Part shown: one piece after another, positions 415 to 26,200 of the stretch
How the letters are laid out: the number at the start of each line of letters is the position of its first letter
Numbering within the stretch: the first letter of the stretch is position 1
Position numbers and translations under genes: made by a program
The notes under the pieces: model-generated
Database searches by the model: none
What the model saw: only the letters and a program-made list of their open reading frames with translations
Told to the model about the DNA's origin: nothing
Assembly: GCA_042217695.1 (NCBI GenBank)
Contig: JBDGSE010000020.1
Span: 1 to 26,200 of the forward strand
DNA from: Candidatus Nanohaloarchaea archaeon
Lineage (GTDB): Archaea > Nanohalarchaeota > Nanosalinia > Nanosalinales > Nanosalinaceae
Length of the DNA: 26,200 nucleotides
Direction: 5' to 3'

Positions 415-427
415 GTTCCGCCTTACC

Positions 428-475
428 ATCTTTTTCTTTTCTCTTAACGCCTAGCCACAGGCATACTTTTTTCTC
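428..475 (+). terminator. Archaeal T-tract terminator downstream of the pilin
   Basis: TTTTTCTTTT (431-440) and TTTTTT (467-472) follow the stop at 414, in the gap between convergent genes. Confidence 0.55.
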
Positions 476-488
476 AAGAATAACTGTT

Positions 489-4452: not shown

Positions 4453-4868
4453 GATACCACCGATATGTTTACCTGGCCGTTCCAGGCCCGGACCGAGAGC
4501 CTTGAAGTCTGTTCCGGCAGGCCTCCAGGGGCCGATACATTTGTGTCAAACACCTGGGAAAGATTGGTGTGACCGGCCTGTGTCCTTACAGTGTAGACCA
4601 CGGCACGGTCCTCCACCACCGTCGCTTTCACAACGTTGTCCGGCACCCGGAACAGAAACGTGAGCCGGGCCGGTTCCCCCGAGGCACTTACCATCTGAAC
4701 GCCGGACTCGAGCTTGTCCAGAGAGTTCTCCATCATGATAAGCCGGGAGTTCTGCTGCACGTTCACCACGGCCTGCTGCGCACTCATTATGAACGGCGCA
4801 GAAATCATCAGGGCTAGTCCGACAACACTCAGGAATTCTATAGATGACTGTGCTTTTCTCAGGGACAC
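4449..4868 (-). CDS. Minor pilin (class III signal peptide, QxxxE type), first gene of the operon
   Basis: GTG at 4868 (or TTG at 4874) gives MSLRKA|QSSIEFLSVVGLALMISAPF. GGAGG lies at 4890-4886. The ORF-track extension to 5057 overlaps ppsA and is unlikely. Confidence 0.8.
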   Translation of the reverse strand: MSLRKAQSSIEFLSVVGLALMISAPFIMSAQQAVVNVQQNSRLIMMENSLDKLESGVQMVSASGEPARLTFLFRVPDNVVKATVVEDRAVVYTVRTQAGHTNLSQVFDTNVSAPGGLPEQTSRLSVRAWNGQVNISVVS

Positions 4869-4938
4869 GTTCAAGAGTTGTAAGTCCTCCTTAAAATCAT
4901 CTCGGGAGCTATATCGCCACTGCCCGAGCACAACACTC

Positions 4939-4947
4939 TTTTTATAT
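4939..4947 (+). promoter_or_regulatory. TATA box for a leaderless ppsA transcript, in a divergent promoter region
   Basis: TTTTTATAT ends about 23 nt before ATG 4971, the spacing expected for archaeal leaderless mRNAs. Confidence 0.55.
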
Positions 4948-4970
4948 GGGAGCCCGTGGAAAAATCTTAC

Positions 4971-8031: not shown

Positions 8032-8811
8032 ATGAGTAGAGGCAGGATTATCGGGTTGATATCCGGCAAGGGCGGAGTTGGAAAGACAAGTATAGGCGTA
8101 AACCTTTCTATAGCCCTGAAACAGATGGGCAACGAGGTAACGCTCGTGGACGCAGACTTCGCCGCCTCCAACCTGGGAGTCTACCTGGGAAGGTACGACC
8201 ACCCGGTCAAGATACAGCAGGTCCTGAACGGGGACTCCGAACCGGATTCCGCGATATTCAGGCACCCGACCGGTATCAAGGCCGCGGTATCCTCCAACGA
8301 GATAAACCACGTGGAGCCGGATACCGCCAAACTCAGGCAGATGCTCCTGGAGGCATCCCAGGACTCGGATTACGTTCTCGTGGACTGCCCTCCCGGACTG
8401 AACGCCACGGTCGAATCCATAATGGCCTCCGTCGACGAGATGATGATAGTCACGATGCCGACACAGACCGCGGGTATAAACGCGGCCCAGATAATAGAGA
8501 AGGCGAAACAGCTCAAACAGCCGGTGCTGGGCACAGTGGTGAACATGGTTGAGAACGACCCCGAGAAAGAACTTGTGGAAAGAGAGATCGAGATGATGAC
8601 CGAATCCCACATAATGGCACAGATACCTCACGACCCGCTCATGAAGAAGAGCCTGTTCGAGAACCAGCCGCTGATACTCTACGAACCTCTCTCCGAGGCC
8701 TCGCTCCAGATAAAGGAGCTGGCGGCCAGCATGGACGGCCAGCGCTACGAGAGACCTAAGTTCGCAAAGGTCAAGAAGAAGATAAACGACCTGAAACGTT
8801 CCCTGGGTTAA
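8032..8811 (+). CDS. minD: MinD/ParA-family ATPase (archaeal MinD type)
   Basis: Deviant Walker A SGKGGVGKT, LVDADFAASNLGVYLG, Walker B region YVLVDCPPG, GTVVNM and a basic amphipathic C-terminus (KVKKKINDLKRSLG). Confidence 0.9.
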   Translation: MSRGRIIGLISGKGGVGKTSIGVNLSIALKQMGNEVTLVDADFAASNLGVYLGRYDHPVKIQQVLNGDSEPDSAIFRHPTGIKAAVSSNEINHVEPDTAKLRQMLLEASQDSDYVLVDCPPGLNATVESIMASVDEMMIVTMPTQTAGINAAQIIEKAKQLKQPVLGTVVNMVENDPEKELVEREIEMMTESHIMAQIPHDPLMKKSLFENQPLILYEPLSEASLQIKELAASMDGQRYERPKFAKVKKKINDLKRSLG

Positions 8812-11522: not shown

Positions 11523-11545
11523 TATATTATTATGAGGGTTTTCTA

Positions 11546-12340
11546 TCACTTTAAAGGTTTGAGTAGTGTTTCCCGGGCGCTGGGGTGTTTTGCGATGAGT
11601 ACGAGGTTTAGAGCGGCGGAGAGGAGAAGCAGTATCTCGAGTGCATGGGCCTGGACCCGTTCAAGTATGGTGGTCTGGGCCGCGACGTTGACCGTGGCGG
11701 TACCCACCACCCTGCCGTCCTTCATCACTGCGTAGAGAATCTCTCTCTGCGAGTGGAAGAGGTAGGGTTCGTACTGCACGGTGGCTCTCCCGTCCTTTAT
11801 GTCGACTGCATGGACTTTCCAGCCAGCGGGGGTGCTGTAGGGCACCATTGTACCGTTCTCCACTCCCAGTTTGACCCGGGCAGCGGAGGAGTTGGATTCC
11901 AAAGTGGTGGTCTCCACGGTGTGGTTTGCGACCACTCCCTCCCGGGACGTGAAACTGTAGTTCTGGAGGGTGGCGGTCTGTCCGCAGTAACTGAGTTCTA
12001 TGGTGGCGTTTACCTCTCCGGTGTAGTTGTAGGGCAGATAGTTTATCTCCATGAGAGCGGTTTCGCCGGGCCAGAGCGCGTAACCCTGTGACCAGCGTTC
12101 GACAGTCTCTCCTGAATGGCTGTAGACCCCTTTCAGCCGGAAGACGCAGCCGACAGATCCTGTATTGGCCACGCTGGTGTTGAACGTGTTCAGTGGGTCC
12201 GCGTCGTCCTCGGCGTCAAAGGCGACCTGGTTGAATGAGGTCAGCTCCGATATCTGTACCTTGAACCGTGTGGCGCCGGCGGGGGCGATCAGCAGCCCTG
12301 CTATCAGTAGGAGGGTACCGATGCTTTTAGGTCCAGCCAT
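11546..12340 (-). CDS. Secreted Ig-like protein with a C-terminal membrane anchor
   Basis: Signal MAGPKSIGTLLLIAGLLIAPAGA, motifs VANTGSV and LWPGET, C-terminal TM ALEILLLLSAALNLVLIA. Confidence 0.75.
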   Translation of the reverse strand: MAGPKSIGTLLLIAGLLIAPAGATRFKVQISELTSFNQVAFDAEDDADPLNTFNTSVANTGSVGCVFRLKGVYSHSGETVERWSQGYALWPGETALMEINYLPYNYTGEVNATIELSYCGQTATLQNYSFTSREGVVANHTVETTTLESNSSAARVKLGVENGTMVPYSTPAGWKVHAVDIKDGRATVQYEPYLFHSQREILYAVMKDGRVVGTATVNVAAQTTILERVQAHALEILLLLSAALNLVLIAKHPSARETLLKPLK

Positions 12341-12759
12341 CTATTACCCAGCGCGTTCTTCGGGGTCTGGATTTTCAGTCTGACTTCGCCAGTGTAGTAA
12401 CCGGGTTCCGTGGCGTTGAACTTGATACGCATCTGTCTGGCGCCCTTGAAATAGAATTTCTCGTCGTATTGCAGGGTGCCAGAGATGTTGCCTGTGACAG
12501 TTGTCATCACGAGTGCCTGCCTGGAGCTGGTTATGTTTATGAACTTTATCGAGGCAGCTCCCACAGGGATTTTTCCGAACCATAGCTGGGAACCCGTGAC
12601 TATCCCTATCTCCTGGGTCGCGTTTTCACTTGAGTTTATCGCGGTGGCGTTGGCGTTGAAAGACTCGATGTAGGTGTTTGTGGCGAACTGGTTTACAGCA
12701 AAGGGAGATAGACCTATGAGAATGCTTATCCCGATGATGGAGGCTGCTAGTTTGTCGAT
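12304..12759 (-). CDS. N-terminally anchored subunit-like protein, 151 aa, probable ATC start
   Basis: The frame is open from 12765 to the stop at 12304, with no ATG/GTG/TTG until 12564. ATC at 12759 follows SD GGTGA and gives MDKLAASIIGISILIGLSPFAV. Motifs LWFGKIPVG and EPGYYTGEVRL. The ORF track captures only the last 86 aa. Confidence 0.7.
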   Translation of the reverse strand: MDKLAASIIGISILIGLSPFAVNQFATNTYIESFNANATAINSSENATQEIGIVTGSQLWFGKIPVGAASIKFINITSSRQALVMTTVTGNISGTLQYDEKFYFKGARQMRIKFNATEPGYYTGEVRLKIQTPKNALGNRWLDLKASVPSY

Positions 12760-12765
12760 TGTTAG

Positions 12766-13866
12766 TCACCCATAAATCAATACGCCTACTGAAAGTAATA
12801 AAAGTAGCCCAAGCAGGTAGAGCGGAAGCCCTGTAAGGATTATGTAGAGAGAGATCCCCAGGAGGCCGAGCAGCACCACTATCCACACAGGGTCGAGCTC
12901 GAAGTAGTACATCATCGCGCCGAGCAGTACGAGCACCATCAGCACAAGCCAGTAGGGCACCCTGGATTTTTCGCCGTCTGGCTGAGGCCCCTGCCTGATC
13001 TCTATGATCTTGGAGATGTTTATGGTTTCATCGATGTAGGCGCTGCCGGTAATGTAGCTCATCTTTCCCTCGACCCGGTAGATGCCTGCGTCAAGGCTCT
13101 GCTGGCTCCAGTAGGTCTCCACTATCCTGGTCTCGCCCGGGGCCAGGCGTTCTCCCCCTATAATTATCTTGCCCGTTTTGTTGCCCACCTCGTTGTATAT
13201 CAGTGTCTTGGCGCGCTGTATCTTGGTGGTGACCGTGCCGTTGTTCTTCATCAGGAAGTCTATACGGACCTGGTCCTCCGAGGTTCTGAGGCTGTTCACA
13301 CCGAGTATCTTGAGGTCACGGATCGCCCTGGTCGGGGGCGTTTCCCTGTCGACGTAGAATACGAACACGAACTGCGTTACGCCGACAGTCTGGACGGACG
13401 TGGTCCCGGAGGCGGAGGCTGAGAACTGGGGGTTGAGGTTTATCGCTCCTGCGTGCCAGCCTGGCTCCGCATCTTTCGGGATACTTATCTCGAACTCTAC
13501 CTTCTGGTTTGCCCGGGCAACACCGCCGTTCCTCAGCTGTATCACCTTTACGTTCGACGGGTTGACCTGGTATGTGTCGGGCAGATGCACCCATGAGCTG
13601 ATGTCCTCGCCGGATGCATTGGCAGGCACGTAACCGTAGCTTGTCTTCCCGCCGGTAAGCATGGAGGTGTGGGGCCGGGTGTAACCTGGTTTTATGATGA
13701 ATGGGTTGTTCCGGTCCGTGACAATGTAGAAGTAGGCCTCGTAGGTCTTCCCGGGCTCCAGTTTCCCAAGGTTCTGGACGCCGGGAGCGGTACCAACATA
13801 CGCCGCACCGATACCGGTGAAGAGCAGGGCGGCGGCCACCAAGAACACGGTCTTCTTCGCTTCCAT
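12766..13866 (-). CDS. DUF916/DUF3324 (WxL-interacting protein)-like two-domain membrane protein, putative fibre chaperone/anchor
   Basis: MEAKKTVFLVAAALLFTGIGAA signal. Domain 1: LGKLEPG...W...VEFEISIPKDAEPGWHAGAI. Domain 2: MKNNGTV...LAPGETRIVETYW...LDAGIYRV. Two or three C-terminal TM helices. The family call is by motif resemblance only. Confidence 0.6.
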   Translation of the reverse strand: MEAKKTVFLVAAALLFTGIGAAYVGTAPGVQNLGKLEPGKTYEAYFYIVTDRNNPFIIKPGYTRPHTSMLTGGKTSYGYVPANASGEDISSWVHLPDTYQVNPSNVKVIQLRNGGVARANQKVEFEISIPKDAEPGWHAGAINLNPQFSASASGTTSVQTVGVTQFVFVFYVDRETPPTRAIRDLKILGVNSLRTSEDQVRIDFLMKNNGTVTTKIQRAKTLIYNEVGNKTGKIIIGGERLAPGETRIVETYWSQQSLDAGIYRVEGKMSYITGSAYIDETINISKIIEIRQGPQPDGEKSRVPYWLVLMVLVLLGAMMYYFELDPVWIVVLLGLLGISLYIILTGLPLYLLGLLLLLSVGVLIYG

Positions 13867-14052
13867 GTAACAACCCTTTCCTGACACTGGTTTGTAGTTG
13901 CAGGTCCTATTTTATTAGGGTTGTCCAGCACCGCCGAAATAGTAGTAAAATCAACTGTGCAAAGTCGGCGAACACTAGTTTTTTAAACAAGCCAAGGTTA
14001 TTCCTTTCCAGGGGAGCGGGGGAAGAAAAGACCGGTATATCGTGATAAGTTG
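13867..14052. promoter_or_regulatory. Divergent promoter region between the accessory operon and the major subunit genes
   Basis: 186-bp AT-richer gap with TTTTTTAAA at about 13979-13988 (+) and TAATAAAA at about 13917-13910 (-). Confidence 0.55.
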
Positions 14053-15111
14053 ATGGCTGGAAAACACCCCGATGCTAGAAGCAAGTTAGTCAAGTCTCTA
14101 ACTCTACTCTCAGTAGTTCTGCTGGCCTTCTCCGCGAGTGTTTCGGCTGCAAACGCCCAGAACACGCTGGACGTCAACGTTTCTATCGCCACGCAGACCA
14201 TAATCGATATCCAGCCAAAAACGTTCTCCTGGGGCTACGGGAGTACAGTCTACCCGGGGAGTACGGCAGGACCTTCCGAAGAGATGCACGGTTACGGCCG
14301 TATACAGATAGAGAACCTTGGTTCTGTTAACATCACACAGGTATGGTTCAACAACACGCAACCAGCGCAGAGGCCTTTCGGTACAGGTAACCCGGGCGCC
14401 TACGACTCGGCGAACTTCCTGGCTATCGACTTCAACATGAGCGGTGTGAACGACAGGAACACCTTCATAGACAGGAAGGAGTTCGGGCTCGACCAGCCCA
14501 CTGGCAAAGAAATAATCTACCTGGAGACTCCCAGCGGCTGGGACTACGGACGTTTCAGGAACGCATCCTATGAATACTTCTGGACGGTGGATGACTCGGG
14601 GACCAGTCTTGACGGTGCAAAGTTCAGGATAGGAGTCGAGCACCACAACTCTACGCAGACCGGTTCAACCAACCTGGCCTCCACCTGCTCGGGTGGAGAT
14701 GCAACCGGAAGCAACACGCAGTGTAACGGATACACCCTGACCAACGTCAGCATCAACGGGAACTGGTGGGCCGTCACCGAGGTAGAAGTGGGCGTACTGG
14801 ACTCCACCACGATGTCGAACGAAGGCGGTGCAGAGTACTGTGTTGCGATGGACGCCAGTCAGGTCATGGGGACCAGTCCTCCAGAAGTCGAGTTCATCAA
14901 GTGGAACAAGGGACACCCCGCAGTAGTGGCGGCCGGCGCAGGAAGCGGCTGTGCCTACGCCACCAATTACACTATCGGCGGTTCATCCCCGGCCGGAGAG
15001 CTCGCGCCCGGTGAATGGATCACCATGAACATCCGGGCCAAGATACCGTATGGTGTTGTTTCGGGCAATTTGCCCACAGGAAACCTATTTGTCTTGGCAA
15101 ACAGTCAATGA
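14053..15111 (+). CDS. Secreted putative fibre/surface subunit A (paralog of the next gene)
   Basis: Sec signal ending SASVSA. Mature N-terminus NTLDVNVSIATQTIIDIQP, IQIENLGSVNITQVWFN, RPFGTGNPGAYDSANF, RKEF, WDYGRFR, EYFW and C-terminal LAPGEWITMNIRAKIPYG. No C-terminal TM. Confidence 0.8.
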   Translation: MAGKHPDARSKLVKSLTLLSVVLLAFSASVSAANAQNTLDVNVSIATQTIIDIQPKTFSWGYGSTVYPGSTAGPSEEMHGYGRIQIENLGSVNITQVWFNNTQPAQRPFGTGNPGAYDSANFLAIDFNMSGVNDRNTFIDRKEFGLDQPTGKEIIYLETPSGWDYGRFRNASYEYFWTVDDSGTSLDGAKFRIGVEHHNSTQTGSTNLASTCSGGDATGSNTQCNGYTLTNVSINGNWWAVTEVEVGVLDSTTMSNEGGAEYCVAMDASQVMGTSPPEVEFIKWNKGHPAVVAAGAGSGCAYATNYTIGGSSPAGELAPGEWITMNIRAKIPYGVVSGNLPTGNLFVLANSQ

Positions 15112-15131
15112 AAATCCCCTAAAACAAAAAC

Positions 15132-15138
15132 GAGGTGA
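15132..15138 (+). promoter_or_regulatory. Strong Shine-Dalgarno motif for subunit B
   Basis: GAGGTGA followed by the A-rich spacer AAACAAAA(A) before ATG 15148. It is the best SD match seen in the window. Confidence 0.7.
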
Positions 15139-15147
15139 AAAACAAAA

Positions 15148-16167
15148 ATGAACAGCAAAACGACAACCAGGCTCTTGGTCATAGCAGTCCTGGCGCTTGG
15201 GATGGTCGGTTCAGCCACGGCACAGACATCGGAAGCCACAGATAACTCCACAGTGTCCGTGAGTATCGGAAGCAAGATAGCGATAGATATCTCCCCCACT
15301 GCGCTCGACTTCGGGTCGATAACCCCGGGTAACGAGGATTCCACGGCAACCATTGGTTCCGGGGAAGTGGTGGGAGCGATAGAGCTCGAGAACACGGGCT
15401 CCGAGAATATAACACATGTCTGGCTGAACGCATCCACCCCGACATCCAAGCCGTTCGGGACCGGTACACCCAGTGCGTATGATTCAGGCAACTTCATGAT
15501 GGTGAAGACCGGGAACGGAGATATCACGGGAGTGACTGCCTATCAGAACTTCACATACGTCAACAGGAAGGAGTTCAACGAGACCAGCACCCTCCCCTAC
15601 ATCTTCGTACCCGGTGAAGGAAGTACCGCACAGAACTGGAGTTACGGCCGGTTCCGGGTAGGAGACCAGGAATTCTTCTGGGCTGTCAACGTCACAAATC
15701 GTGCCGCAGGAACAGGACAGTGTGTGACAGGAAACAACGACTTCAGGTTAGGAGTGTCTGCGCACAACCAGACAGCGACAGGAAGCAACGACTTCACAGA
15801 CCCGGCGGAGTACTACAGCTTCTCGGTCACCGATGTTGGTACCTCTGGTACCAACCCGTACCTGGTGACAGGTGTGGAGCTCAACGGTTCCGTCCTCAGT
15901 GGACACAGGAACTACGATGTAGTGCTCAACTGTGGCAACCCGACCTGGGCAATGAGGACCCACTTCAACATCGGTCCAGGAACCCTGGATCTCAGCACCA
16001 GTGGCTCAGCGGCTGAGTTCCTGGTTAGCTCCACCAACACCTATGGTGAGGCCGCGTTGCAGCCTGGTGAACACTTCACTGTGAACGTGAGCATGCAGGT
16101 TCCGCTTGGAGTAGCTACAGGATCGCCTATCAACGGTTACCTGCGGGTCTTCGCGAACAACAACTAG
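15148..16167 (+). CDS. Secreted putative fibre/surface subunit B (candidate major subunit)
   Basis: Sec signal ending GSATA. NSTVSVSIGSKIAIDISPTALDFGSITPG, IELENTGSENITHVWLN, KPFGTGTPSAYDSGNF, RKEF, WSYGRFR, EFFW and LQPGEHFTVNVSMQVPLG. No C-terminal TM. Confidence 0.8.
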   Translation: MNSKTTTRLLVIAVLALGMVGSATAQTSEATDNSTVSVSIGSKIAIDISPTALDFGSITPGNEDSTATIGSGEVVGAIELENTGSENITHVWLNASTPTSKPFGTGTPSAYDSGNFMMVKTGNGDITGVTAYQNFTYVNRKEFNETSTLPYIFVPGEGSTAQNWSYGRFRVGDQEFFWAVNVTNRAAGTGQCVTGNNDFRLGVSAHNQTATGSNDFTDPAEYYSFSVTDVGTSGTNPYLVTGVELNGSVLSGHRNYDVVLNCGNPTWAMRTHFNIGPGTLDLSTSGSAAEFLVSSTNTYGEAALQPGEHFTVNVSMQVPLGVATGSPINGYLRVFANNN

Positions 16168-16200
16168 GGGCTTACCCCCCTTCCCGGTTCTTTTTTTATT
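16167..16200 (+). terminator. Short GC hairpin plus T-tract terminator
   Basis: GGGG-CTTAC-CCCC followed by TTCTTTTTTTATT immediately after the stop. Confidence 0.6.
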
Positions 16201-16221
16201 CGAGTTCTTCCAACCTTAACC

Positions 16222-17232
16222 ATGGCCAGCAAGTACTCCAACTTTTCGGATGAGCAACTTGAACAGACGGCCGAGATACTTGGACAGAAAGTCCAGGAAC
16301 TGGAGCAGGAGGTCCAGAAAGGCATACTTGGACAGGAGGACGCTATCCGGAAGGTTTTGCTGGCGGTTGTCGCGGGCGGAAACGTTCTGCTGGAAGGAGT
16401 GCCGGGACTGGGGAAGAGCCTGATGGTTGAAACCCTGGGGCGTACCGTGAAGGGGACCACGTTCAACCGTATCCAGTTCACGCCGGACCTTCTTCCCGCG
16501 GACATCATCGGTATCGAGGCGTACAACGAGGAGAAAGGGTTCTACACGGAGAAAGGACCTATCTTCGCGAACTTTATCCTAGCCGACGAGATCAACAGGG
16601 CCCCTCCAAAAGTCCAGTCCGCTATGCTTGAAGCCATGCAGGAGAACAAGGTTACAATCGGCGAGGAGGACCACCACCTGCCGAACCCGTTCTTTGTTAT
16701 GGCGACGCAGAACCCTGTGGAGCAGGGCGGTACCTATCCTCTACCGGAAGCGCAGGTCGACCGCTTCCTCTTCAAGGTCTACATGGATTACCCAAGGAAA
16801 GAAGTGGAGCAGAAGATAATCGACATAAACGCCAACATCATGGACATGGAGGACTTCGGCGTCGAGGAGGCGCTGACCTTCGACGAGCTGGTGGAGGTCC
16901 AGGACTTCTCCAAGCACATCAAAGTCAGCGATGAGATCAAGCAGTACATCGTGGATATAGTTGACGCCACGAGGAAACCGGAGGAGTACGACATGGAGTA
17001 CGGCAAGTACATCGATTACGGAGCTTCGCCAAGGGCGTCAATCAACCTTGCGCTGGCGGCCCGTGCATATGCGCTCTCCGAGAAACGGCACTACGTGAAG
17101 CCCAGTGACGTCCGGGAGGTTACAACCCAGGTCCTGCAGCACAGGATACTGCTTAACTACGAGGGAGAGGCCCGAGATATAAGCAAAGACGATATAATAC
17201 AGGATATAATAGACCGCGTGCCGGTGAGATGA
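16222..17232 (+). CDS. moxR: MoxR-family AAA+ ATPase
   Basis: Walker A GVPGLGKS, RIQFTPDLLPADIIG, Walker B ILADEINRAPPKVQSAMLEAMQE, ATQNPVEQGGTYPLPEAQVDRF and GASPRA lid. Confidence 0.96.
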   Translation: MASKYSNFSDEQLEQTAEILGQKVQELEQEVQKGILGQEDAIRKVLLAVVAGGNVLLEGVPGLGKSLMVETLGRTVKGTTFNRIQFTPDLLPADIIGIEAYNEEKGFYTEKGPIFANFILADEINRAPPKVQSAMLEAMQENKVTIGEEDHHLPNPFFVMATQNPVEQGGTYPLPEAQVDRFLFKVYMDYPRKEVEQKIIDINANIMDMEDFGVEEALTFDELVEVQDFSKHIKVSDEIKQYIVDIVDATRKPEEYDMEYGKYIDYGASPRASINLALAARAYALSEKRHYVKPSDVREVTTQVLQHRILLNYEGEARDISKDDIIQDIIDRVPVR

Positions 17233-18119
17233 TGGAGGAAAGGTTCATATCCTCGGAGCAGATGGTCGAGGAGATCACTGCAGAAGTCCAGAGGATATCC
17301 GATGCATTCCAGTTCATCCTGAAGTACAGGGAACAGTTCCAGCCCTCCGGCATAGAGTTCTCAGACCTCCGGCAGTACAACCCCGGGGACGACGCTTCCC
17401 GTATAGACTGGCGTTCTTCAGCCCGATTGAACGACCTCTACGTGAAGGAGTACGAGGAGGAGCAGAACATGGACGTCTTCATAATAATGGACGTCTCGGA
17501 CACCACCGACTTCGGTACTGCGGACAAGCTGAAGAGCGAGTACTTCGCGACAGTGGCGGCAACCATCGCCTACGCCTCCGTGGACATGAACGTTAACGTC
17601 GGTATAGGGATGTTTGGCGACGACATCACCTTTCTCAGCCCGGACGGTGGACAGACACAGTACCAGAAAATCCTGAGAGAGGTGACGAACCCCGACAACT
17701 TCGGCGGCACCTTCAACTTCGAGGAAAGCCTGAACGAGTTGCTCAAAAGGGTCAAGGACAACACGTTCGTGTTCATACTGTCCGATTTCATAGATTTCGA
17801 CCACGGCGACTGGGAACCGAAGCTGAAGGTCGTGAACAGCAAGTACAGGAAGGTCTTCACCCTCATGATACGGGACCGGCGAGACTACGAACTACCAAAA
17901 ACGGGTAACATGCGGTTCAAGAGTCCATCCGGAGACCAGAGGATGGTGGTAGACACCAACAGGTTCAGGGACAGATTCAACGAGGAGGCCCGGAGAAAAG
18001 AGGATGAGGTCGAGGAGAAACTCAGGGCGGGAGGCTCCGAGTTCGTAAAGATAGACACCCGGGACTCTTTCGCCGCGGAAATCCTGAGCTATTTCGACCA
18101 GGCGGAGGGAAGCTGGTAG
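17229..18119 (+). CDS. DUF58 (COG1721) vWA-like MoxR partner
   Basis: SGIEFSDLRQYNPGDDASRIDWRSSAR, LYVKEYEEE, IMDVSDT and ILSDF. ATGA overlap with moxR. Confidence 0.92.
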   Translation: MMEERFISSEQMVEEITAEVQRISDAFQFILKYREQFQPSGIEFSDLRQYNPGDDASRIDWRSSARLNDLYVKEYEEEQNMDVFIIMDVSDTTDFGTADKLKSEYFATVAATIAYASVDMNVNVGIGMFGDDITFLSPDGGQTQYQKILREVTNPDNFGGTFNFEESLNELLKRVKDNTFVFILSDFIDFDHGDWEPKLKVVNSKYRKVFTLMIRDRRDYELPKTGNMRFKSPSGDQRMVVDTNRFRDRFNEEARRKEDEVEEKLRAGGSEFVKIDTRDSFAAEILSYFDQAEGSW

Positions 18120-19069
18120 TGAAACTGATATTCACCTCTCAGTACGCCAACGTGATATTCCTTATAAACGGCCTCATAGTGCTCTTCTACCTGGGTTCCA
18201 TCCGGAAGGACAGGCAGCGCGCCATGAAGTTCGGGAACTACGAGACACTGGAGAAAGTCGCGGGCAGGGCTTTTCTACGCAGTCACAACATATTCCTCCT
18301 GATACGGGTGCTCGCGGTAACGGCCCTGCTCATCGGTATCTCGAACCCTGTACTGGTGCAGCAGGCCCCCTCATCGAGTTCGGCATACGTCCTTGCCATC
18401 GACTCATCATCGTCGATGCTGGCCCAGGACATAAAACCCACCAGGTTCAAGGCCGCCAAACAGCTTTCCTCCGATTTTATAGCCGAGCTACCGAAGAACT
18501 CCCGTGTAGGAGTCGTATCGTTCGCGGGAACCGCGACAGTAGAGCAACAGTTAACAATGCAGCAGGAAAAAGCTGCTGCCGCGGTTTCAAACATCGACGT
18601 GGGTGACAGGGCGGGCACGGCGATAGGGGATGCGTTATCTGCCTCGGTCTCCCTGCTGCTCGGCACCAACCAGTCGCGCTCCGTCATACTGATGACAGAC
18701 GGCAGGAACAACGTGGGCAGCCCGGTGAATGCCTCAATAGTGTACGCCCAGAACAACAACGTCACCATCCACACGATCGGACTGGGAAGCACCAACAGAA
18801 GCATCGAGGGAAGCCGAGTGATATCCGGCGAAAACGTTTCGGAGGCCGAGTTCCCCAACCTGGATGTCTCCCAGCTGGAGAGGATAGCCAACAGGACTGG
18901 TGGAGATTTCATACCGGTGACCAACCGCACACAGTTCAAGAGCGCGTTGCTGGGCCTCTCCACCTCGAAGGTAAAGAAGGACGTGTCCCACTACCTGATA
19001 CTTATAGGGGCCGGTCTCCTGCTCCTGGAATGGTTGCTGGCCACCACCCGGTTCAGTGTCATACCGTAA
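18119..19069 (+). CDS. BatA/BatB-like membrane vWA-domain protein
   Basis: N-terminal TM pair, MIDAS DSSSS, GTAIGDAL, LMTDG, IHTIGLG and a C-terminal TM. The GTG start overlaps the upstream TAG by 1 bp. Confidence 0.9.
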   Translation: MKLIFTSQYANVIFLINGLIVLFYLGSIRKDRQRAMKFGNYETLEKVAGRAFLRSHNIFLLIRVLAVTALLIGISNPVLVQQAPSSSSAYVLAIDSSSSMLAQDIKPTRFKAAKQLSSDFIAELPKNSRVGVVSFAGTATVEQQLTMQQEKAAAAVSNIDVGDRAGTAIGDALSASVSLLLGTNQSRSVILMTDGRNNVGSPVNASIVYAQNNNVTIHTIGLGSTNRSIEGSRVISGENVSEAEFPNLDVSQLERIANRTGGDFIPVTNRTQFKSALLGLSTSKVKKDVSHYLILIGAGLLLLEWLLATTRFSVIP

Positions 19070-19102
19070 AACCTTATTTAATCAGCCACAACTATTCTCC
19101 AG

Positions 19103-20974
19103 ATGGCTGTCGAATGCGATATCTGCGGCAGGGAGTTCGACTCCGAGAGAGGTCTCCATGTCCACAAGTCGCAGGTGCACCAGAACGAGTGTGAGATCTG
19201 CGGTAAGAGCTTTGAAACGGAGAGAGGCCTGAAGATACACAGGTCAAGGTCCCACAGCGACAGCTCCAGCGACGAGGAAACCGGAGAGGCCGCGGAGAAC
19301 GAGGATGGAGAAGAAGGAAAAGTCCGGGAAGACGCCGGCGGAGACGAAGAGGACAGAGAAGACGGGCTCCCGGAAGAGGAACTGGACGATGTTAAAGATG
19401 TAGAAGGCCTGGACGAGGAACAGCTGGTCCGGATAATAGGCGGCGATATCGGGGAGCTGGAGGACTTCCTGGAAGAGGAAAGAAGTGTCGAGACCCTGAA
19501 AAGGCTTCTGGAAGACGAGAAAATCGCCCAGGACCGCGAAGAGGCTCGAAAACTCTTAAAGAAGAACATAAACCAGAAAGAGCTGGGAAAGGACTTCGAG
19601 GAGGCGATGGGCGATCTAGGAGATGTCAAAGACATACTTGGAGAGATAAAAGACGAGGAAATCGGTGACAGAGATTTCAACGGCGAGGAGCCGGACGAGA
19701 TAGACCCCATGACCGCGGTCGACCTGATAGAGGGCGACTTCGAGAGCATGAAGGAGTTCACGGAGGAACACAACCCCACAGTGGAACAGCTCGATGAACT
19801 GACAGAGGCCGAGAGAAACGCCCAGAACCGCGAAAAAGTGATAAAATACCTGAAGACTACAAGACACCAGAAGAAACTTTACAGAGACATCCAGGACGCC
19901 CTGGAACACGTCGAAAAAATTCAGAAGGACCTCGAAGAGATAGAAGAGGAGTCAGACTACGTGCCGCCCGAACTACTGGAGGAATACGAGCCGCATGAAA
20001 CCGTGGAAGAACAGGAAGACGAGAAAAATGAGAAGATGGACGAACTGGTCTCCTACGGCTACGATGAAGACGAACTGGAGGACAGGGACAGCGACGAACT
20101 TGAAGAACTGCTTGACGAGATAGAGGAGAAGAAATCCCTTATAGAGGAGCTGGACGTCGACTACCCGGACGAGAAACTGTCAGAGGTCGACATGGACGAC
20201 CTGAAAGAGCTGAAGGAAGAGAAAGAGGAACGCCAGCAGCTGGTGGAGGACCTGAAAGATATGGGGATGGACGAGGAAGAGCTGAACAACTCCAGCACAG
20301 AGGACCTGAAAAAACTGAAGGAGGAGATGGAGTCCTCCGGTGAAGAGGACGGGGAAGAAAACGATGCCGTGGAGGAACAGGAAGACGGGGAAGAAGATGG
20401 CACGGATGAAGACGAACAGGATACCGAGGACGGAGACAGTGAGAACGGTGAAGAAGACGCCGAAGACGATGACGGAGACCCAGAAGAGAAGGACAAAGAA
20501 GAGATAGAGGAAGAGGCCGAGGAAGACCTGAAGATGCTGATGGGGGCGGTACACTCCCGGGAGGAAGAGGAGGATGAGACCCCCTCCACGCTGGAGCAGC
20601 TGGGAGAGTACCGGGAACAGCTCACCAGCATGTTTGAAAGAAAGGAGGAAGAGGAGAGGACTGCAGGTATAGACCCTGCGAAGGTGAAGGACCTCCTCGA
20701 GGATTACCGGGAACTTGGCGATACCGAGAAGGCCATCAAGACCGCGCATGTCATGAAGGGCTACCTTGAACACAAGAGGAACATCGAACGCGAACTGACC
20801 TACCAGGAGCTCGTGGAGGAACTGAGGGAGATCGAAAACCCGCCGAACAGCCTTCAGACGATGCAGGACTTCTTCGAGAAGATGAGCAGGGATGAATACG
20901 TCGAGAATATCTCGATCGGCAACATGGATATGATACTGGACGCGGCCCAGGCCACCGTAGAAGAGATGGGATAG
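19103..20974 (+). CDS. Hyper-acidic protein with two N-terminal C2H2 zinc fingers, internal helical repeats and a folded C-terminal helical domain
   Basis: CDIC-x12-HKSQVH and CEIC-x12-HRSRSH, a D/E-dominated body, and TTATTTAA 21 nt upstream of the ATG. Confidence 0.8.
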   Translation: MAVECDICGREFDSERGLHVHKSQVHQNECEICGKSFETERGLKIHRSRSHSDSSSDEETGEAAENEDGEEGKVREDAGGDEEDREDGLPEEELDDVKDVEGLDEEQLVRIIGGDIGELEDFLEEERSVETLKRLLEDEKIAQDREEARKLLKKNINQKELGKDFEEAMGDLGDVKDILGEIKDEEIGDRDFNGEEPDEIDPMTAVDLIEGDFESMKEFTEEHNPTVEQLDELTEAERNAQNREKVIKYLKTTRHQKKLYRDIQDALEHVEKIQKDLEEIEEESDYVPPELLEEYEPHETVEEQEDEKNEKMDELVSYGYDEDELEDRDSDELEELLDEIEEKKSLIEELDVDYPDEKLSEVDMDDLKELKEEKEERQQLVEDLKDMGMDEEELNNSSTEDLKKLKEEMESSGEEDGEENDAVEEQEDGEEDGTDEDEQDTEDGDSENGEEDAEDDDGDPEEKDKEEIEEEAEEDLKMLMGAVHSREEEEDETPSTLEQLGEYREQLTSMFERKEEEERTAGIDPAKVKDLLEDYRELGDTEKAIKTAHVMKGYLEHKRNIERELTYQELVEELREIENPPNSLQTMQDFFEKMSRDEYVENISIGNMDMILDAAQATVEEMG

Positions 20975-20975
20975 G

Positions 20976-21509
20976 ATGACTGATGAAAGGCACGAGGCTT
21001 TCGAGTTCGTGGTATTCTCTATCGTGTTCGCCGCCTCATACTTTGTTATAGGTCCTCTTCTACACGAGGCAACACACATGGCCTTCCTGGAGCACCTCGG
21101 ATGTTTCTACAGCATGGAGTGGGCGTTCCACGGTTTGAGAGGTATCAGCGCCGCAGTACAGCCCTACTGTTACCTGGGCCAGGCAAAACTGCTGGTATTC
21201 TATCTGTCCGGCTATTTTTCGGTGCTGCTGACAGGGGGCATGCTGGCGTTCTGGAGCCTGGAGTTCCAGGATCTCGACAGCGTGAAGGGAGTATTCACAG
21301 GTTCCCTGGGCGCAGGCATGCTGCTCGCCCTCGGGGTCACCATCGCCGCCGAGGGAGACATCGCCAACTCGCTCCAGATACTCGGGGTCTCCACGCGTTA
21401 CGCCGGCATTGTAAGGCTGTTCGTGTTACTCGGTGCGTCATCCACCAGCCTGAAGCTCCTGCAGCACATATTTGACAGGTCAGAATGGGAGAACAGCCGC
21501 GAGGGGTAG
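20976..21509 (+). CDS. Small polytopic membrane protein, putative M50-like (site-2 type) zinc metalloprotease
   Basis: LLHEATH (HExxH) at the end of TM1, a 'YLSG' helix and a distal 'EGD' as a possible third ligand. About four TM segments. Confidence 0.65.
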   Translation: MTDERHEAFEFVVFSIVFAASYFVIGPLLHEATHMAFLEHLGCFYSMEWAFHGLRGISAAVQPYCYLGQAKLLVFYLSGYFSVLLTGGMLAFWSLEFQDLDSVKGVFTGSLGAGMLLALGVTIAAEGDIANSLQILGVSTRYAGIVRLFVLLGASSTSLKLLQHIFDRSEWENSREG

Positions 21510-24047
21510 CGAGTAGTAGTTGACGACCACGTAGAGGAGGATGAGTGCCTCACCCAGGATTATCAGGAGGAACGGTATCCGTACCAGGTTGGATTCAAGG
21601 TCCATCCTCCGGGTGAAGAAGGCGTAGGCCGCCAGCAGCAGAGTCCACAGGACGGCGATAAGGGGGACCCGACGTTCCTGCGGGATAAGTCCCTGCTCCG
21701 GTATGATGGTCACCTGTAGCGTGGAGAAGGCGTAAGCCCCTCCCTGGGATGAGACCACCAGCGTGGCGTTGCACCTGGCTGTCCGTCCACCGGCGGCGAT
21801 GCTTACCTGGAGCGACTGTGATTCGTTCACGTCCAGTACCTCGACCGAGCCGGAGGAGGCCGTGCCGCAGTCGTCGATGTTCTGGAGCCTGGCCTCTATG
21901 CCAGTAAGATTAGTCCTCCCTGTGTTCTCCACCAGTACGGGAAAGCTCTGGTTGGTGTTGACCGGTATGTTGATCGCCCGTGGAGCCTCTTCTATACTTA
22001 TCCTGGGTATGAACTGGGCCCGGAGAACTCTTAGCTGGAAGTAGTCAAGGTCCAGCTGCCTGTCCTCGACCTCGGCGGATACCGGGACCACGTACATACC
22101 CGGGGCGGCGTTCCGGGGCGGCTGGACGAATACATCTCTCTGCACCGTTTCGTTCACGGAGAGATTTGTTATCCGGGCGTTTCTCACGCTCCATTCCTGC
22201 CTGAACCTGTTTATCTGTGGTATGAGTGAAACGTTCTCCACCGCGGTGTTCCCCATGTTCGTGACGTTGAACGTCGCGGCCACGTAAACCCCCTGTCTGG
22301 TCCGGTAAACCCTTTGCAGGGGTGTTATCTCCACACTTATCTCGGGCGTGGGTTCTGGGGTCGGCACTGGCGTCGGGGTCGGCTGGGGTTCAGGAACCTC
22401 TGTCTGTCCGGGTTCCGGACTGTCTCCCGGTATGGAGACGTTGGATGTCTGGTTGCCGCTCTGGTTTGCCCCGCCCTTCTGCTCTCCTATACCCGTCACT
22501 ATCTCGAAGTTGCCGAAGAAACTGAAGCTCTCGTAGAATTTCAGGGTGGTGTTACAGAGCGCAGAGGTGTTGTCCAGACTGCTGCATTCCAGTGACGTGT
22601 TCAGGTAGTCGTTGCTGTACTTCATCAGCGAGAAAGTGCCGTTCTGGCCGTCATAACCCAGTCCCCGGACCTGTATATTGTACTCCGATATCAGCCCCGT
22701 CTCGTAGGCGCATTCTGATTGCTCGATGGTGGAGTTCGGGGTGGCGCAGGCATAGTCGTAGCCCGAGGTGGAGGACGAGTTGAAGCTGTAGAAACTGTAG
22801 AGCGTGGAATTCAGGGTGGCGTTTCCGGTGTATGCCTGTGTGCCTGCCACCTGTTTGTCCACGGTCTTCTCTGATTCGGCGGTCATGTTCACGGTAACCG
22901 TCTCCGCGGTGACCAGGTTGGTGTCGACGACCGAGAAGTTGTAGCAGGAGAACTGGCTCTGGTTGAGCGGGGAACAGGTGTAGCTCTGGTTCAGTGTCTG
23001 TTTCTGGAAGTTCTGGTTCTGGGCGCCGTCTGCGTAACACCGGGTGGAGATCCTGGAGTGGCCGGTGTAGTTGCCCAGCTGGTATGTGGCGTGGAACAGT
23101 TTGAAGTATGTTATACTGTCGCCGATATCGACGTAGGGGTAGTCCTCTCCCCGGTAAGATCTGACTATGGACCCTATCTCCTCTCCTGTTGAGTACGGGT
23201 TATCTCCCTCGTAGCTGACATTCAGGTAGTCCACGCTTATATTTGACTCTATATTGCCGGTGTTCGACGCGATCTCGACAAAGACACCTGTTTTGTTCTG
23301 GACTATCTCTCCATCACCAGGCAAAAGGAAGTAACTGAGGCTTGTGGAACAGGTCGGCGCTATCTTGACGGACACGTTGGCTTCCTTTGACTCTCCGTAC
23401 ACGTTGAAACCGTTTCTGGCCTGTGCCGTGTTGCCGCTGGAGTCCTCCACGTAGATGGTATAATCTTTTTCCCCCGAGCTCTGGGCCTCTAACTCTCTCC
23501 TCCAGAAGGATATGGCCCCGGAACTGTTGACCAGGTTCATCGCGTATTCCTCGCCCGACTGGAACGTGATGTTGACCACCTGGATGTTCTGGGCGGCGTC
23601 CGCAAGCGTTGCTCTTATCGTTACGTTGGTGCCCTTCATGAGGTAGGACGGGTTCACGGTCTGGTTCACGAAGGCCGGGTCATCCGTTGCCACGAAGAAC
23701 CGTTCAGAAACCGGGACAGATGCAGAACCGTTGGACAGGGCTGCCGTGGAACTCCAGTAGCCACTGTCTGTCGAGGCTATGGAGTAGTTGTACTGGTATA
23801 TCTGGTAGGTCCCGTTGCCGACCTCCGTCATCTCTGCAGAGCTGACCACCGTGTTCCCGGATGAGTCCGTCAGGTTGATGGTCGCGGCCGAGGAGTTGGA
23901 GGCGTTGAGCTGGAAGGTCACCGTCTCAAGGTTCTGGAAGAATTCCTCCGGGGTGCCGTTATAGTAGGTGTCGTAGCTGTTGATTGTCAACCCCGAGGCC
24001 AGCGGAACTGCAAGCAGCAGCACCAGCGGAAGTATCTTTCTGTCGAT
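21480..24047 (-). CDS. Large glycoprotein with Ig-like and CARDB/NEW3-like domains, Pro-rich linker and two C-terminal TMs; probable ATC start
   Basis: ATC at 24047 overlaps the upstream TAA (TAATC) and gives MDRKILPLVLLLAVPLASG. The GTG at 24023 would delete the basic n-region. PEPQPTPTPVPTPEPTPE linker, VTNMGNTAVENV and VENTGRTNLTGI repeats. Confidence 0.8.
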   Translation of the reverse strand: MDRKILPLVLLLAVPLASGLTINSYDTYYNGTPEEFFQNLETVTFQLNASNSSAATINLTDSSGNTVVSSAEMTEVGNGTYQIYQYNYSIASTDSGYWSSTAALSNGSASVPVSERFFVATDDPAFVNQTVNPSYLMKGTNVTIRATLADAAQNIQVVNITFQSGEEYAMNLVNSSGAISFWRRELEAQSSGEKDYTIYVEDSSGNTAQARNGFNVYGESKEANVSVKIAPTCSTSLSYFLLPGDGEIVQNKTGVFVEIASNTGNIESNISVDYLNVSYEGDNPYSTGEEIGSIVRSYRGEDYPYVDIGDSITYFKLFHATYQLGNYTGHSRISTRCYADGAQNQNFQKQTLNQSYTCSPLNQSQFSCYNFSVVDTNLVTAETVTVNMTAESEKTVDKQVAGTQAYTGNATLNSTLYSFYSFNSSSTSGYDYACATPNSTIEQSECAYETGLISEYNIQVRGLGYDGQNGTFSLMKYSNDYLNTSLECSSLDNTSALCNTTLKFYESFSFFGNFEIVTGIGEQKGGANQSGNQTSNVSIPGDSPEPGQTEVPEPQPTPTPVPTPEPTPEISVEITPLQRVYRTRQGVYVAATFNVTNMGNTAVENVSLIPQINRFRQEWSVRNARITNLSVNETVQRDVFVQPPRNAAPGMYVVPVSAEVEDRQLDLDYFQLRVLRAQFIPRISIEEAPRAINIPVNTNQSFPVLVENTGRTNLTGIEARLQNIDDCGTASSGSVEVLDVNESQSLQVSIAAGGRTARCNATLVVSSQGGAYAFSTLQVTIIPEQGLIPQERRVPLIAVLWTLLLAAYAFFTRRMDLESNLVRIPFLLIILGEALILLYVVVNYYSLPLAAVLPF
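22340..22430 (-). repeat. Pro/Thr/Glu low-complexity linker coding repeat
   Basis: Encodes PGDSPEPGQTEVPEPQPTPTPVPTPEPTPE. Confidence 0.7.
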
Positions 24048-24922
24048 TATACCACCTTCAGGAGGTAGAGCATGGATGCAAGAGCGCCCAGCAACAGTGC
24101 AGGTGTCACAGGGTTTACAGAGGAGAAGAACCCTCCAGTCACGTTATTATTCTGTTTCTCGCTGCTGTCCGAGGTCCTTGGCTCCGGTGATACCTGCTGA
24201 CCGGTATCGGATCCCTGCTGTTCTCTCCCCGGGTCCTTCACCCGTATATCGGGTTTGTGGGTGGCGCTGCCTGTAGCCGATCCACCTGAGAACCCGCTGA
24301 AGACTCCGTCAAAACCGTCGTTGAAGTTCTGTACCAGTCCTGCACCGAAGTCTGCAGCTCTCTCCAGCGCCCCCGTCCTGTTCTGAGTCTCCGACTCCGC
24401 TACAGAGGTCCTTGCAGCGGACGTGCGGACGGTGTAACTGTAGCTACGGACCTGGACAACGCTCTGGGTCGGGTTCGTCTGGCTGCCGGAGTATCCGGAG
24501 TCTGGGGTTGCGGTTGACGCCTTGACACGGACCTTGAAGTGGGCCACGTTGTCGGGCCGGGCCCGGTCCAGGAACGCCTTCACCTTTATCTCACTGGTCT
24601 GGACGTATTTCCCGTTCTTCAGAAGGAACCAGGAAGCATCGCTGGAGGGGTCGGAGGTAACCTCTGAGGGCGGCAGCGTGAAACTGTTGAAACCGCTTCC
24701 CGGCGCGTTGAACCTCACGGTCACGTCGCTGTCGACCTGGTAGGCCTCCAGTTCGATGTGGAGCGGGGAGGATCCCAGGTTCAGTACTTCTATGGTGAAG
24801 GTGGCGGTCCTGCCGTTGACCGTCTTCTCTGTACCTGACGAGAAACTTCCGAAGGACGCTCCCGCCGCTGTCGAAACCAGGAAAATCGAGATGAGTACCA
24901 GGGTTCCGGTTCTTTCCATCAT
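24047..24922 (-). CDS. Secreted single-Ig-domain protein with Ser/Thr/Gly-rich stalk and C-terminal TM
   Basis: Signal MMERTGTLVLISIFLVSTAAG, FTIEVLNLGSSPLHIELEA, low-complexity stalk and TM PALLLGALASMLYLL. Confidence 0.75.
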   Translation of the reverse strand: MMERTGTLVLISIFLVSTAAGASFGSFSSGTEKTVNGRTATFTIEVLNLGSSPLHIELEAYQVDSDVTVRFNAPGSGFNSFTLPPSEVTSDPSSDASWFLLKNGKYVQTSEIKVKAFLDRARPDNVAHFKVRVKASTATPDSGYSGSQTNPTQSVVQVRSYSYTVRTSAARTSVAESETQNRTGALERAADFGAGLVQNFNDGFDGVFSGFSGGSATGSATHKPDIRVKDPGREQQGSDTGQQVSPEPRTSDSSEKQNNNVTGGFFSSVNPVTPALLLGALASMLYLLKVV

Positions 24923-24932
24923 CTCTATGTTA

Positions 24933-26200
24933 TTATTCAGTGGCGTTCACCTTTATTGTTATAGTCCCGTTGTAGGTCCCGTTGTACTTTCCGTAGGGTA
25001 TCTCCTGCCAGAAGCACTGGGTGACCGAGCCCCCGGAGCCAAGGTAGCCGACTATCCGGGAGAACGTGCTGTGAAGAGGTTCGCTGCCCATGTAGGAGCA
25101 GGAACTCTCCATCGCCCATGAAGTGTTTTCCGGCAGTATCCTCCTGTTGGCGGTGTCTGGACCGGTCTTTCTCTTCAGCGGAGTCATCTTCATCCATAGA
25201 CCTCCTGTGGCGGCGTTCGAGTTCTCGTCCAGTTTCACTGTGTACTCTCCCTCGCCGTTTCTTGGCGCGGAAAGTACGTCTCCAGGTGTGCCGGTGCCGA
25301 ACGCCAGGTACTCGTAGGTGACGTTCATTATCAGGACGAGGTCTATCCTGACCCTGCTGTCCTCGGTGTCGTTGTTTTTCGTGTTTTCTCCCTCCAGCAG
25401 GGCGTCCAGCGCGTGGTGAGAGTTCAAGTCACCGGTGGCATTGACCTGCCAGTCGATGTAGCAGCTCTCACCCTGTGCGAGTGTGCCGCAAGACTTCTGG
25501 TTCTGGCCAACAGTGTAGAAAGGTGTTCCGGAGCCCTCGGGAATCGCTGTTCCGGCGGTAGTTCCCGATGCGTTATACCTCATCGTGGCGTTCACCTGTC
25601 CACAGTCCCCCGCGTTACAGGTTACAGAGACGTTCGCGGTGAAAGTCTGGTTCTGTGCCAGAGTGGTCTGGTTGGGCGGTTCTAACAGGTCGCCGGTGAG
25701 GTAGGCGGTCACGTCGCTTACAAGATTAACCGTCTCCGAGGCAGTGTCCTGCGAGGAAGTGTTGTAGTAGAGCGAGGGCGCGTCCTGTATCCTGCATGAC
25801 CACGTCTTCTCGCCCGTTGAGAGACCAGAGGTATTGTAGAAGTAGACTGCCTCCCCTGTCGTGTCGGTAGCGTTAGAACCTATGAAGCTGCCGCTGTCAT
25901 CGTAAAACGCCACGGAGTAGTTAGCGATTCCGTCCCCGGTAGCGTTGTCGTATACCCCGCACTTGAGTTTGGTGCTGTTGCTCTTCTCCACGGTTCCTGT
26001 AGGCGAAAGCCACTCCACCCGGGAGTAGCCCCAGACATCGAACTTCAGGTACTGCAGCGTGTCGTTCAGGTTGCCTTTCGTGTCGTTGGCGTAGGTCTTT
26101 ATCCAGTGCTCGCCGACGGACCAGTTACCGTCCGTCTTCAGCGTGTAGTTCGTCCAGTTATCCGTGTACGGCTTCGAGATGAAATCCTGCGTGAAGCTGG
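24933..26200 (-). CDS. C-terminal part of a large secreted Ig-repeat protein ending in a subunit-like domain (5'-truncated by the window edge), candidate tip adhesin
   Basis: The frame stays open from 26198 (SFTQDFISKPYTDNW...YANDTKGNLN...) to the stop at 24933, so GTG 26018 is internal. No terminal TM. Ends LAFGTGTPG...EIPYGKYNGTYNGTITIKVNATE. Confidence 0.8.
   Translation of the reverse strand, partial: SFTQDFISKPYTDNWTNYTLKTDGNWSVGEHWIKTYANDTKGNLNDTLQYLKFDVWGYSRVEWLSPTGTVEKSNSTKLKCGVYDNATGDGIANYSVAFYDDSGSFIGSNATDTTGEAVYFYNTSGLSTGEKTWSCRIQDAPSLYYNTSSQDTASETVNLVSDVTAYLTGDLLEPPNQTTLAQNQTFTANVSVTCNAGDCGQVNATMRYNASGTTAGTAIPEGSGTPFYTVGQNQKSCGTLAQGESCYIDWQVNATGDLNSHHALDALLEGENTKNNDTEDSRVRIDLVLIMNVTYEYLAFGTGTPGDVLSAPRNGEGEYTVKLDENSNAATGGLWMKMTPLKRKTGPDTANRRILPENTSWAMESSCSYMGSEPLHSTFSRIVGYLGSGGSVTQCFWQEIPYGKYNGTYNGTITIKVNATE

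Follow-up and report, generated by a model that had tools for sequence, protein, structure and literature searches.

What do the secreted and membrane proteins encoded between positions 11,546 and 26,200 of contig JBDGSE010000020.1 (assembly GCA_042217695.1, Candidatus Nanohaloarchaea archaeon) build? The window that we analysed is this entire contig of 26,200 nucleotides (C13 in our numbering) from a 757-kb genome, and the homologues whose sources carry names are also from Ca. Nanohaloarchaea. The original prediction had read the region as a donor-strand fibre system with two shaft subunits, an anchored subunit, a chaperone and a tip adhesin. We conclude that the cluster is probably an archaeal chaperone-guided donor-strand pilus of the Elr/Pam type. 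The fibre interpretation is supported by a monomer model with a free strand, by the likeness of 12766 to the WxL-interacting protein (WxLIP) family and by gene co-occurrence, and chaperone guidance is favoured because the parts list equals that of Elr: an anchored chaperone, an abundant donor-acceptor subunit, an acceptor-only tip and a donor-type anchor.

Naming genes by their first coordinate in the window, the minus strand carries 8808, 11546, 12304 and 12766 and, further on, 21480, 24047 and the incomplete 24933, and the plus strand carries 14050 (14053 in the original prediction), 15148, genes for MoxR, DUF58 and vWA proteins, an acidic protein and a small membrane protein. All eleven bracketing motifs quoted in the original prediction were found at their genes. 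Among these genes, Pfam/NCBIfam cut-offs were passed by MoxR, DUF58, vWA, C2H2 fingers and one NPCBM-associated immunoglobulin (Ig) domain (in 21480) alone. Signal peptides and membrane helices were called by hydropathy and by eye, without a dedicated predictor, and since iterated local profiles drifted (pilin to tip, chaperone to 24047), clean profiles were used for all claims. No account of the locus was found in the literature, with subscription journals and the supporting information (SI) appendix of PMC7443923 beyond reach; the accessible part of PMC11291902 discusses only type IV loci.

The major pilin candidate is 15148 (15148..16167, plus strand), which has a signal peptide and no membrane anchor. 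Its AlphaFold model (predicted local distance difference test (pLDDT) 93.6, predicted template modelling score 0.90, alignment of 147 sequences) consists of a PapD/MSP-like Ig core, an inserted domain of ~160 aa with invariant residues and no known fold matched, and an N-terminal strand that pairs with nothing: mature residues 1–20 lack a beta partner, and residues 11–20 average a pLDDT of 95. Within this segment lies the predicted donor strand (15247..15270, plus strand; mature residues 9–16, pLDDT ~95), with the amphipathic pattern V11-x-V13-x-I15. Across 299 homologues (weighted), V11, V13 and I15 are hydrophobic in 96–98%, and the alternate positions S12 and S14 in 7% and 2%.

The other half of the argument is a strand that the core lacks. 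In VIA structure searches, PapD/MSP-like domains with Z 6–7.4 align to residues 15–314 of the 15148 model but stop at target residues 89–102, and they stop early on complete domains (HYDIN 2e6j, 2–97 of 112; 1grw, 3–96 of 124). Because the 12766 model spans the same 2e6j chain through residue 112, these early ends indicate that the pilin core is without its last Ig strand, presumably the G strand. The longest alignments, N-terminal strand included, are to TLP-1b (Z 7.0 over 155 aa), the TasA fibre (5.5 over 149), AbpA (4.9 over 136), FimA, PapA and CS17; TLP-1 is a donor-strand-exchange fibril (PMC11494351). VIA values below 8 may reflect a common arrangement, and this fold list is weak taken alone; what argues for a donor-strand pilin is the missing strand and the free strand combined, both present in the predicted model. 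The original prediction would have been undone by a self-complemented monomer, and the model is not one. ElrD and PamA/B chains were absent from the VIA rows (it is uncertain whether the library includes them), and a PDB sequence search with the pilins gave no match.

The second pilin gene, 14050 (14050..15111, plus strand), is a paralogue of 15148 (phmmer E about 1e-35). A tree of 123 pilins places 15148 in a halophile clade of 24 members (support 1.0), to which the single-pilin loci also belong, and 14050 in a clade of 4 members among non-halophile pilins. The one major pilin of most Nanohaloarchaeota has its orthologue in 15148, and 14050 represents a second paralogue of an older type. Elusimicrobiota clusters of 196–220 aa score 0.94 to 15148 in ESM Atlas features and are possibly bacterial pilins of the same kind. 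By eye, N-x-S/T sites are abundant in pilins and tips.

A WxL-interacting-like chaperone had been proposed for 12766 (12766..13866, minus strand), and its closest solved structure is indeed a WxLIP. The ectodomain model (pLDDT 87.6) has two beta domains, and the top VIA row among 48,161 chains is Enterococcus faecium WxLIP 9i1y (Z 12.7), aligned over both domains (227 of 267 residues, 14% identity), whereas rows equal to or just under it span one domain only. Model residues 122–142, ahead of the last strand of domain 1, are mostly unpaired, and the candidate donor segment covers residues 132–150. ESM Atlas features give 0.89 to WxLIP and 0.91 to Minisyncoccota clusters of the candidate phyla radiation (CPR), and sub-cut-off matches occur to PF11797 (4/33 family members) and PF06030 (2/33). 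The pilin core itself reaches Z 6.4 with the WxLIP N-domain, and the likeness of 12766 to the pilins is one of fold only. A PDB sequence search with the chaperone returned spurious ETV6 matches only. We therefore regard 12766 as a membrane-anchored two-domain chaperone candidate of the WxLIP/PamC type. It is one of the five proteins for which shared motifs had been noted, but with an N-domain that forms a complete fold it does not qualify as a subunit.

Two further membrane-anchored proteins, which the original prediction had grouped with 12766 and 21480 as chaperone or platform parts, show a weak likeness. The co-conserved accessory protein 11546 (11546..12340, minus strand) resembles the second chaperone domain (HHalign to residues 176–264, P 47, E 1.9e-4), and 24047 (24047..24922, minus strand), behind the tip gene, resembles the N-domain (P 16, E 1.6e-3) and is weakly suggested as a tip-specific second chaperone. 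For a Pam-like chaperone pair, the count is one anchored chaperone and two proteins of weak profile likeness. The fourth member of that group, 21480, looks different, as described below.

The tip-adhesin candidate is 24933 (24933..26200, minus strand), the 3' part of a large gene cut by the contig end, whose 5' part was not found elsewhere in the genome (G000). Its last ~135 aa form an acceptor-only pilin core. A profile built from 47 database pilins only (A1) matches tip C-termini in two segments, profile positions 23–95 and 258–329 (best E 6e-7 among 1,822 open reading frames (ORFs)), and HHalign of pilin against tip gave P 88.7 (E 2.6e-6) and P 73.3, with P 0.3 for the reversed control. As these matches skip positions 95–258, the pilin is made up of a core into which a further domain is inserted, and the tip has this core alone at its end. 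The five-protein likeness of the original prediction therefore holds for the 14050/15148 paralogues and the 24933 C-terminus, and fails at profile level for 12304 and 12766 (HHalign with the pilin, P 0.2 and 0.6, equal to reversed controls); what all five have in common is the type of Ig fold, and kinship by sequence cannot be demonstrated.

The closest orthologue of 24933 has 2,562 aa (56% identity), and the lengths of tip relatives lie between about 440 and over 4,400 aa, their lectin/Ig fronts being variable (Pfam DUF2341, Big_1/3/13, CBM96, weak H-lectin and FG-GAP). Identity with SPEARE proteins was ruled out, as these have a VirB4-like ATPase and other neighbours (accessible part of PMC10266531). 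In one locus (L022:3-9468 and upstream), two to three tip-type genes of 2,562 aa, over 609 aa and, for a frame that matches the pilin weakly, 1,104 aa stand one after another, which is a tip repertoire. Just past the tip gene, glycosyltransferase-like and membrane genes occur in several genomes (L055-L060).

At the other end of the putative fibre, 21480 (21480..24023, minus strand) is the candidate base or terminator: a conserved Cys is preceded by an alternating strand like that of the pilins, and the protein also has Ig domains and two C-terminal membrane helices. The strand pattern is present in 19/29 rows of its family; in several genomes it comes straight after the signal peptide, and in this one an extra domain precedes it. 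The protein looks like a donor-only membrane base comparable to ElrB or PamR, not a chaperone. The small 12304 (12304..12765, minus strand), a membrane base in the original prediction, combines in the alignment a hydrophobic N-terminal segment with an Ig-like body and is a candidate minor subunit, second base or adaptor. It directly follows the chaperone in every locus holding both (25/25 in Nanohaloarchaeota, 20/20 in the other named loci described below). At its usual place, one locus (L030:13232-19807) has a 2,191-aa ORF after the chaperone.

C-terminal hydrophobic segments are distributed as a pilus model expects: 0/129 pilin-family ORFs, 0/24 tips, 44/44 chaperone ORFs and 25/26 members of the 21480 family. 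By analogy with Elr and Pam, the acceptor-only 24933-type protein with its variable lectin/Ig front would be loaded first and become the fibre tip, pilins would join at the membrane via strand exchange with the chaperone, and 21480 or 12304, as a membrane protein with a donor strand, would stop growth and anchor the fibre. Such fibres may shed easily, and the MoxR-DUF58-vWA module might fold, proofread or release subunits.

We then considered conservation across DPANN. The pilin profile matches 33/70 genomes of the Nanohaloarchaeota phylum sample (13/28 high-quality ones), and 28 of these 33 yielded 30 locus stretches, many of which stop at contig ends. These contain the chaperone (26), 12304 (25), 11546 (25), MoxR (24), 21480 (22), 24047 (21) and the tip core (20). 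When GTDB genomes were scanned with pilins of non-halophiles, 51 named loci emerged, three of which repeat contigs already counted, titled Altiarchaeota, Aenigmatarchaeota, Nanohalarchaeota and others; chaperone, 12304 and 11546 are each present in 20 and MoxR in 18, with pilin arrays of one to four and tip lengths between 1,773 and over 2,900 aa. Of the genomes in the Altiarchaeota record's phylum 15/61 have a pilin, and in that of the Aenigmarchaeota record 38/101 have the chaperone. Overall, 333 pilin clusters were found in the full library at E <= 0.001. The expected co-occurrence in related genomes is hence borne out for three DPANN phyla and not for the phylum of a Woesearchaeota-titled record, in which the chaperone turned up in the seed genome alone (1/41). 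Occurrence in Micrarchaeota is not claimed, as the record so titled falls in the Aenigmarchaeota phylum sample.

Published data from cultured relatives show that the pilin orthologue is extremely abundant outside the cell. In Nanohalobium (PMC7443923; rows LC1Nh_0001-1182 of supplement S2a and S3 rows used), genes around the MoxR gene LC1Nh_0221 are ordered as here, and LC1Nh_0225 shows by eye, within its first 400 bases, a signal peptide, an alternating strand and the family's invariant motifs. This protein has 244 secretome peptides, the highest of those rows (next 191, 71 and 58), against 13 in biomass, and its protein abundance index of 9 is tied for first. The paired peptide counts are 10/0 for the chaperone LC1Nh_0226, 16/0 and 6/2 for further chaperone-side neighbours and 10/8 for the tip. 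The accessible main text does not name LC1Nh_0225 or remark on its abundance; it describes pilus-like stalks that unwind to thin filaments, ascribes them to archaella and leaves their role open. In a second organism (PMC10266531, rows SVXNc_0152-0303 of Table 1), SVXNc_0246, a pilin by position only (beside MoxR), has the highest value of those rows at 55,024 reads per kilobase per million mapped reads; the three genes after it have 662, 886 and 448, and EF-1a has 41,878.

Several results weigh against a chaperone-guided pilus. VIA gives 15148 no fold match with Z >= 8, Foldseek against the PDB gave the pilin no match at E <= 0.001, and single-domain Ig folds equal or outscore the fibre structures as pilin matches. 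Couplings between the N-terminal strand and the core are weak (z 3–4.4, ranks 62–256 of 35,905; strand to core G16-V289 and V13-M291, and with strand 21–24 D7-I23 and S9-I21). For 12766, the root-mean-square deviation to WxLIP is 7.2, and GH2 domains equal the WxLIP Z of 12.7, on one domain; no Pfam WxL, TasA or DUF916/3324 match lies above cut-off in the cluster proteins or the chaperone family. High abundance would fit any structural surface protein. About half of the Nanohaloarchaeota have no pilin match, including the single-contig genomes G001, G005 and G009, so the pilus is not a universal attachment device. Finally, the 12304 ORF has no in-frame ATG, GTG or TTG in this genome. It lies in frame behind the single TGA of 12766 (window 12757–12768, minus strand), ATC stands where relatives have Met (37/45 homologues have one near the start), and two runs, possibly the source of this DNA, show identical letters there; a non-canonical start, read-through and recent loss are the alternatives.

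The rival that survives best, though we consider it unlikely, is a self-assembling donor-strand fibre (a shed matrix, bundle or tube in the style of TasA, AbpA, TLP-1 or cannulae) that 12766 would only nucleate or anchor. It would suit the longest pilin fold matches, the greater richness of LC1Nh_0225 in supernatant than in cells (PMC7443923) and the description of archaeal strand-donation fibres as chaperone-free in the accessible text of the Elr preprint (10.64898/2026.10.17.759780). However, the match of 12766 to WxLIP, to whose family the proven chaperone ElrE belongs, extends over both domains, the protein has a long stretch without a partner ahead of the final strand of domain 1, and the existence of an acceptor-only tip and a donor-type base is likewise at odds with self-assembly. 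A second rival is an S-layer or surface coat, in which the pilin-like protein would tile a lattice assembled by the membrane proteins and the MoxR module. This we hold to be quite improbable: extreme expression (LC1Nh_0225, SVXNc_0246), the numerous Ig-rich membrane neighbours and a regular, S-layer-like surface of LC1Nh (accessible part of PMC7443923) speak for it, but an archaeal S-layer protein is cell-bound and anchored, whereas a C-terminal anchor is absent from all 129 pilin ORFs (a lipobox was not searched), several complete genomes have no pilin match, and LC1Nh_0225 is cell-depleted and 19-fold enriched in supernatant, unlike four annotated S-layer/surface glycoproteins (10/21, 14/4, 10/11 and 18/20 peptides, S2a). 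The hypothetical protein LC1Nh_1061 (225 biomass and 191 secretome peptides, S2a) is a candidate for the true S-layer protein. Least probable of all is a non-polymeric secreted binding protein or cargo of MoxR-vWA export or maturation with the strand as a single-use partner-binding peptide, which would agree with pilins co-oriented with MoxR-DUF58-vWA in most loci and with the unmatched, invariant insert domain, but not with a missing last strand and a free amphipathic strand in one chain, an acceptor core common to tip proteins or an about 80-fold excess over the chaperone gene (PMC10266531).

The MoxR-DUF58-vWA operon, left out of the original prediction, travels with the pilins (24/30 Nanohaloarchaeota and 18/51 other named pilin stretches). 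The genes for the MoxR AAA+ ATPase, DUF58 and BatA-like vWA proteins (16222..19069, plus strand; Pfam) stand directly behind the pilins, and the operon ends with genes for an acidic protein, which here has two C2H2 fingers at its N-terminus, and for a small membrane protein (19103..21509, plus strand). Also co-conserved are a large multi-Ig membrane protein with a cytoplasmic C2H2 tail that shares a domain with 21480 (8808..11549, minus strand) and a MinD/ParA-type ATPase (8032..8811, plus strand; Pfam; 19/51 named loci). Any roles of MoxR-DUF58-vWA, MinD and the zinc-finger-tailed proteins are guesses. MoxR ORFs of 926–951 aa, compared with the usual about 340, occur in three loci (L033:7916-10735, L039:6399-9254, L042:5823-8603) and are probably intein insertions, and a tandem MoxR pair stands behind the pilin arrays of non-halophile loci L061, L062, L065, L066, L075, L076 and L086. 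Near the pilus cluster, window positions 1–5057 contain a separate type IV filament locus, whose genes have weak DUF7266/DUF7288 matches and, judged by eye, short leaders of class III (type IV pilin-like).

How DPANN archaea find and hold their hosts is open, and attention has so far been on type IV filaments and giant SPEARE proteins. LC1Nh_0225, which leads the secretome of a cultured strain with unexplained filaments, is a concrete candidate for a host-attachment fibre. In the literature searched, chaperone-built pili are described only in bacteria. If our reading is right, chaperone-guided donor-strand pili, reported for Bacillota (WxL) and CPR (Pam) only, extend to archaea, three ultra-small or subsurface lineages share one assembly logic, and the MoxR-DUF58-vWA module gains a candidate client. 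A bolder version, which we think rather doubtful, is that the Nanohalobium stalks are bundles of this pilus, that it is the host-capture fibre of much of DPANN with swappable giant tips setting host range, and that it is the first donor-strand pilus remodelled or released from the membrane by an ATPase (MoxR-vWA).

Among known systems, Elr/WxL (ElrABCDE, with WxLIP as DUF916-DUF3324) is alike in its membrane-anchored two-domain chaperone (the structural top match), its subunits with an N-terminal donor strand and incomplete Ig, its large tip with a C-terminal acceptor and variable front, and its donor-only terminator. The accessible text of the Elr preprint (10.64898/2026.10.17.759780) shows the WxLIP family to be the membrane chaperone of a donor-strand pilus, which it describes as limited to Bacillota. 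The cluster here differs in being archaeal, in the domain inserted into the pilin core, in a base with membrane helices where Elr has a wall anchor (a sortase motif was not searched) and in its MoxR-DUF58-vWA, MinD and C2H2-tailed proteins. The 12766 family has the two-domain fold and C-terminal membrane anchor of WxLIP but not the WxL chaperone domains PF06030 and PF11797 above cut-off; WxL (PF13731) has no match at E <= 0.1 in 14050, 15148 and 24933 and none at E <= 0.05 in 23 tip domains, and the Atlas WxL lead is only 0.79. Pam (PamA/B/C/D/E/R/T) shares the ultra-small symbiont, several pilin paralogues, membrane-anchored chaperones, a membrane terminator with a donor strand and the Atlas link of 12766 to Minisyncoccota. 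Its pilin, however, consists of an N-domain, a donor strand in the linker and, at the C-terminus, a truncated Ig, whereas here the donor is N-terminal, an extra domain is inserted and the tip is a large multidomain protein. According to the accessible part of PMC13278184, similar anchored chaperones are predicted in CPR bacteria and pilins of the Pam type occur in CPR only. The MoxR-DUF58-vWA module is absent from both Elr and Pam.

TasA/CalY, AbpA, TLP-1 and haloarchaeal tafi share the donation of an N-terminal strand to an Ig-like core (Z 4.9–7.0, with CalY among the Atlas structure neighbours), but descriptions of the archaeal fibres among them include no chaperone for each subunit, and PF12389, DUF1102 and a dedicated signal peptidase were not found among the 22 window proteins scanned. 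The accessible part of the tafi paper (PMC11821415) mentions neither DPANN nor WxL, and the hamus subunit is described as S-layer-like (PMC4460559). Chaperone-usher pili (FimA, PapA, CS17) share a subunit without its last Ig strand and a PapD-like chaperone domain 1, but here the chaperone is membrane-bound, and neither a PF00345 chaperone nor an usher was matched among the scanned window genes. By domain definitions the cluster is outside WxL, Pam, TasA, tafi and chaperone-usher systems, and as a donor-strand pilus it would work like them; no paper examined describes such a system in archaea, a domain inserted into its pilin or the MoxR-DUF58-vWA, MinD and zinc-finger-tailed proteins that are conserved along with it.

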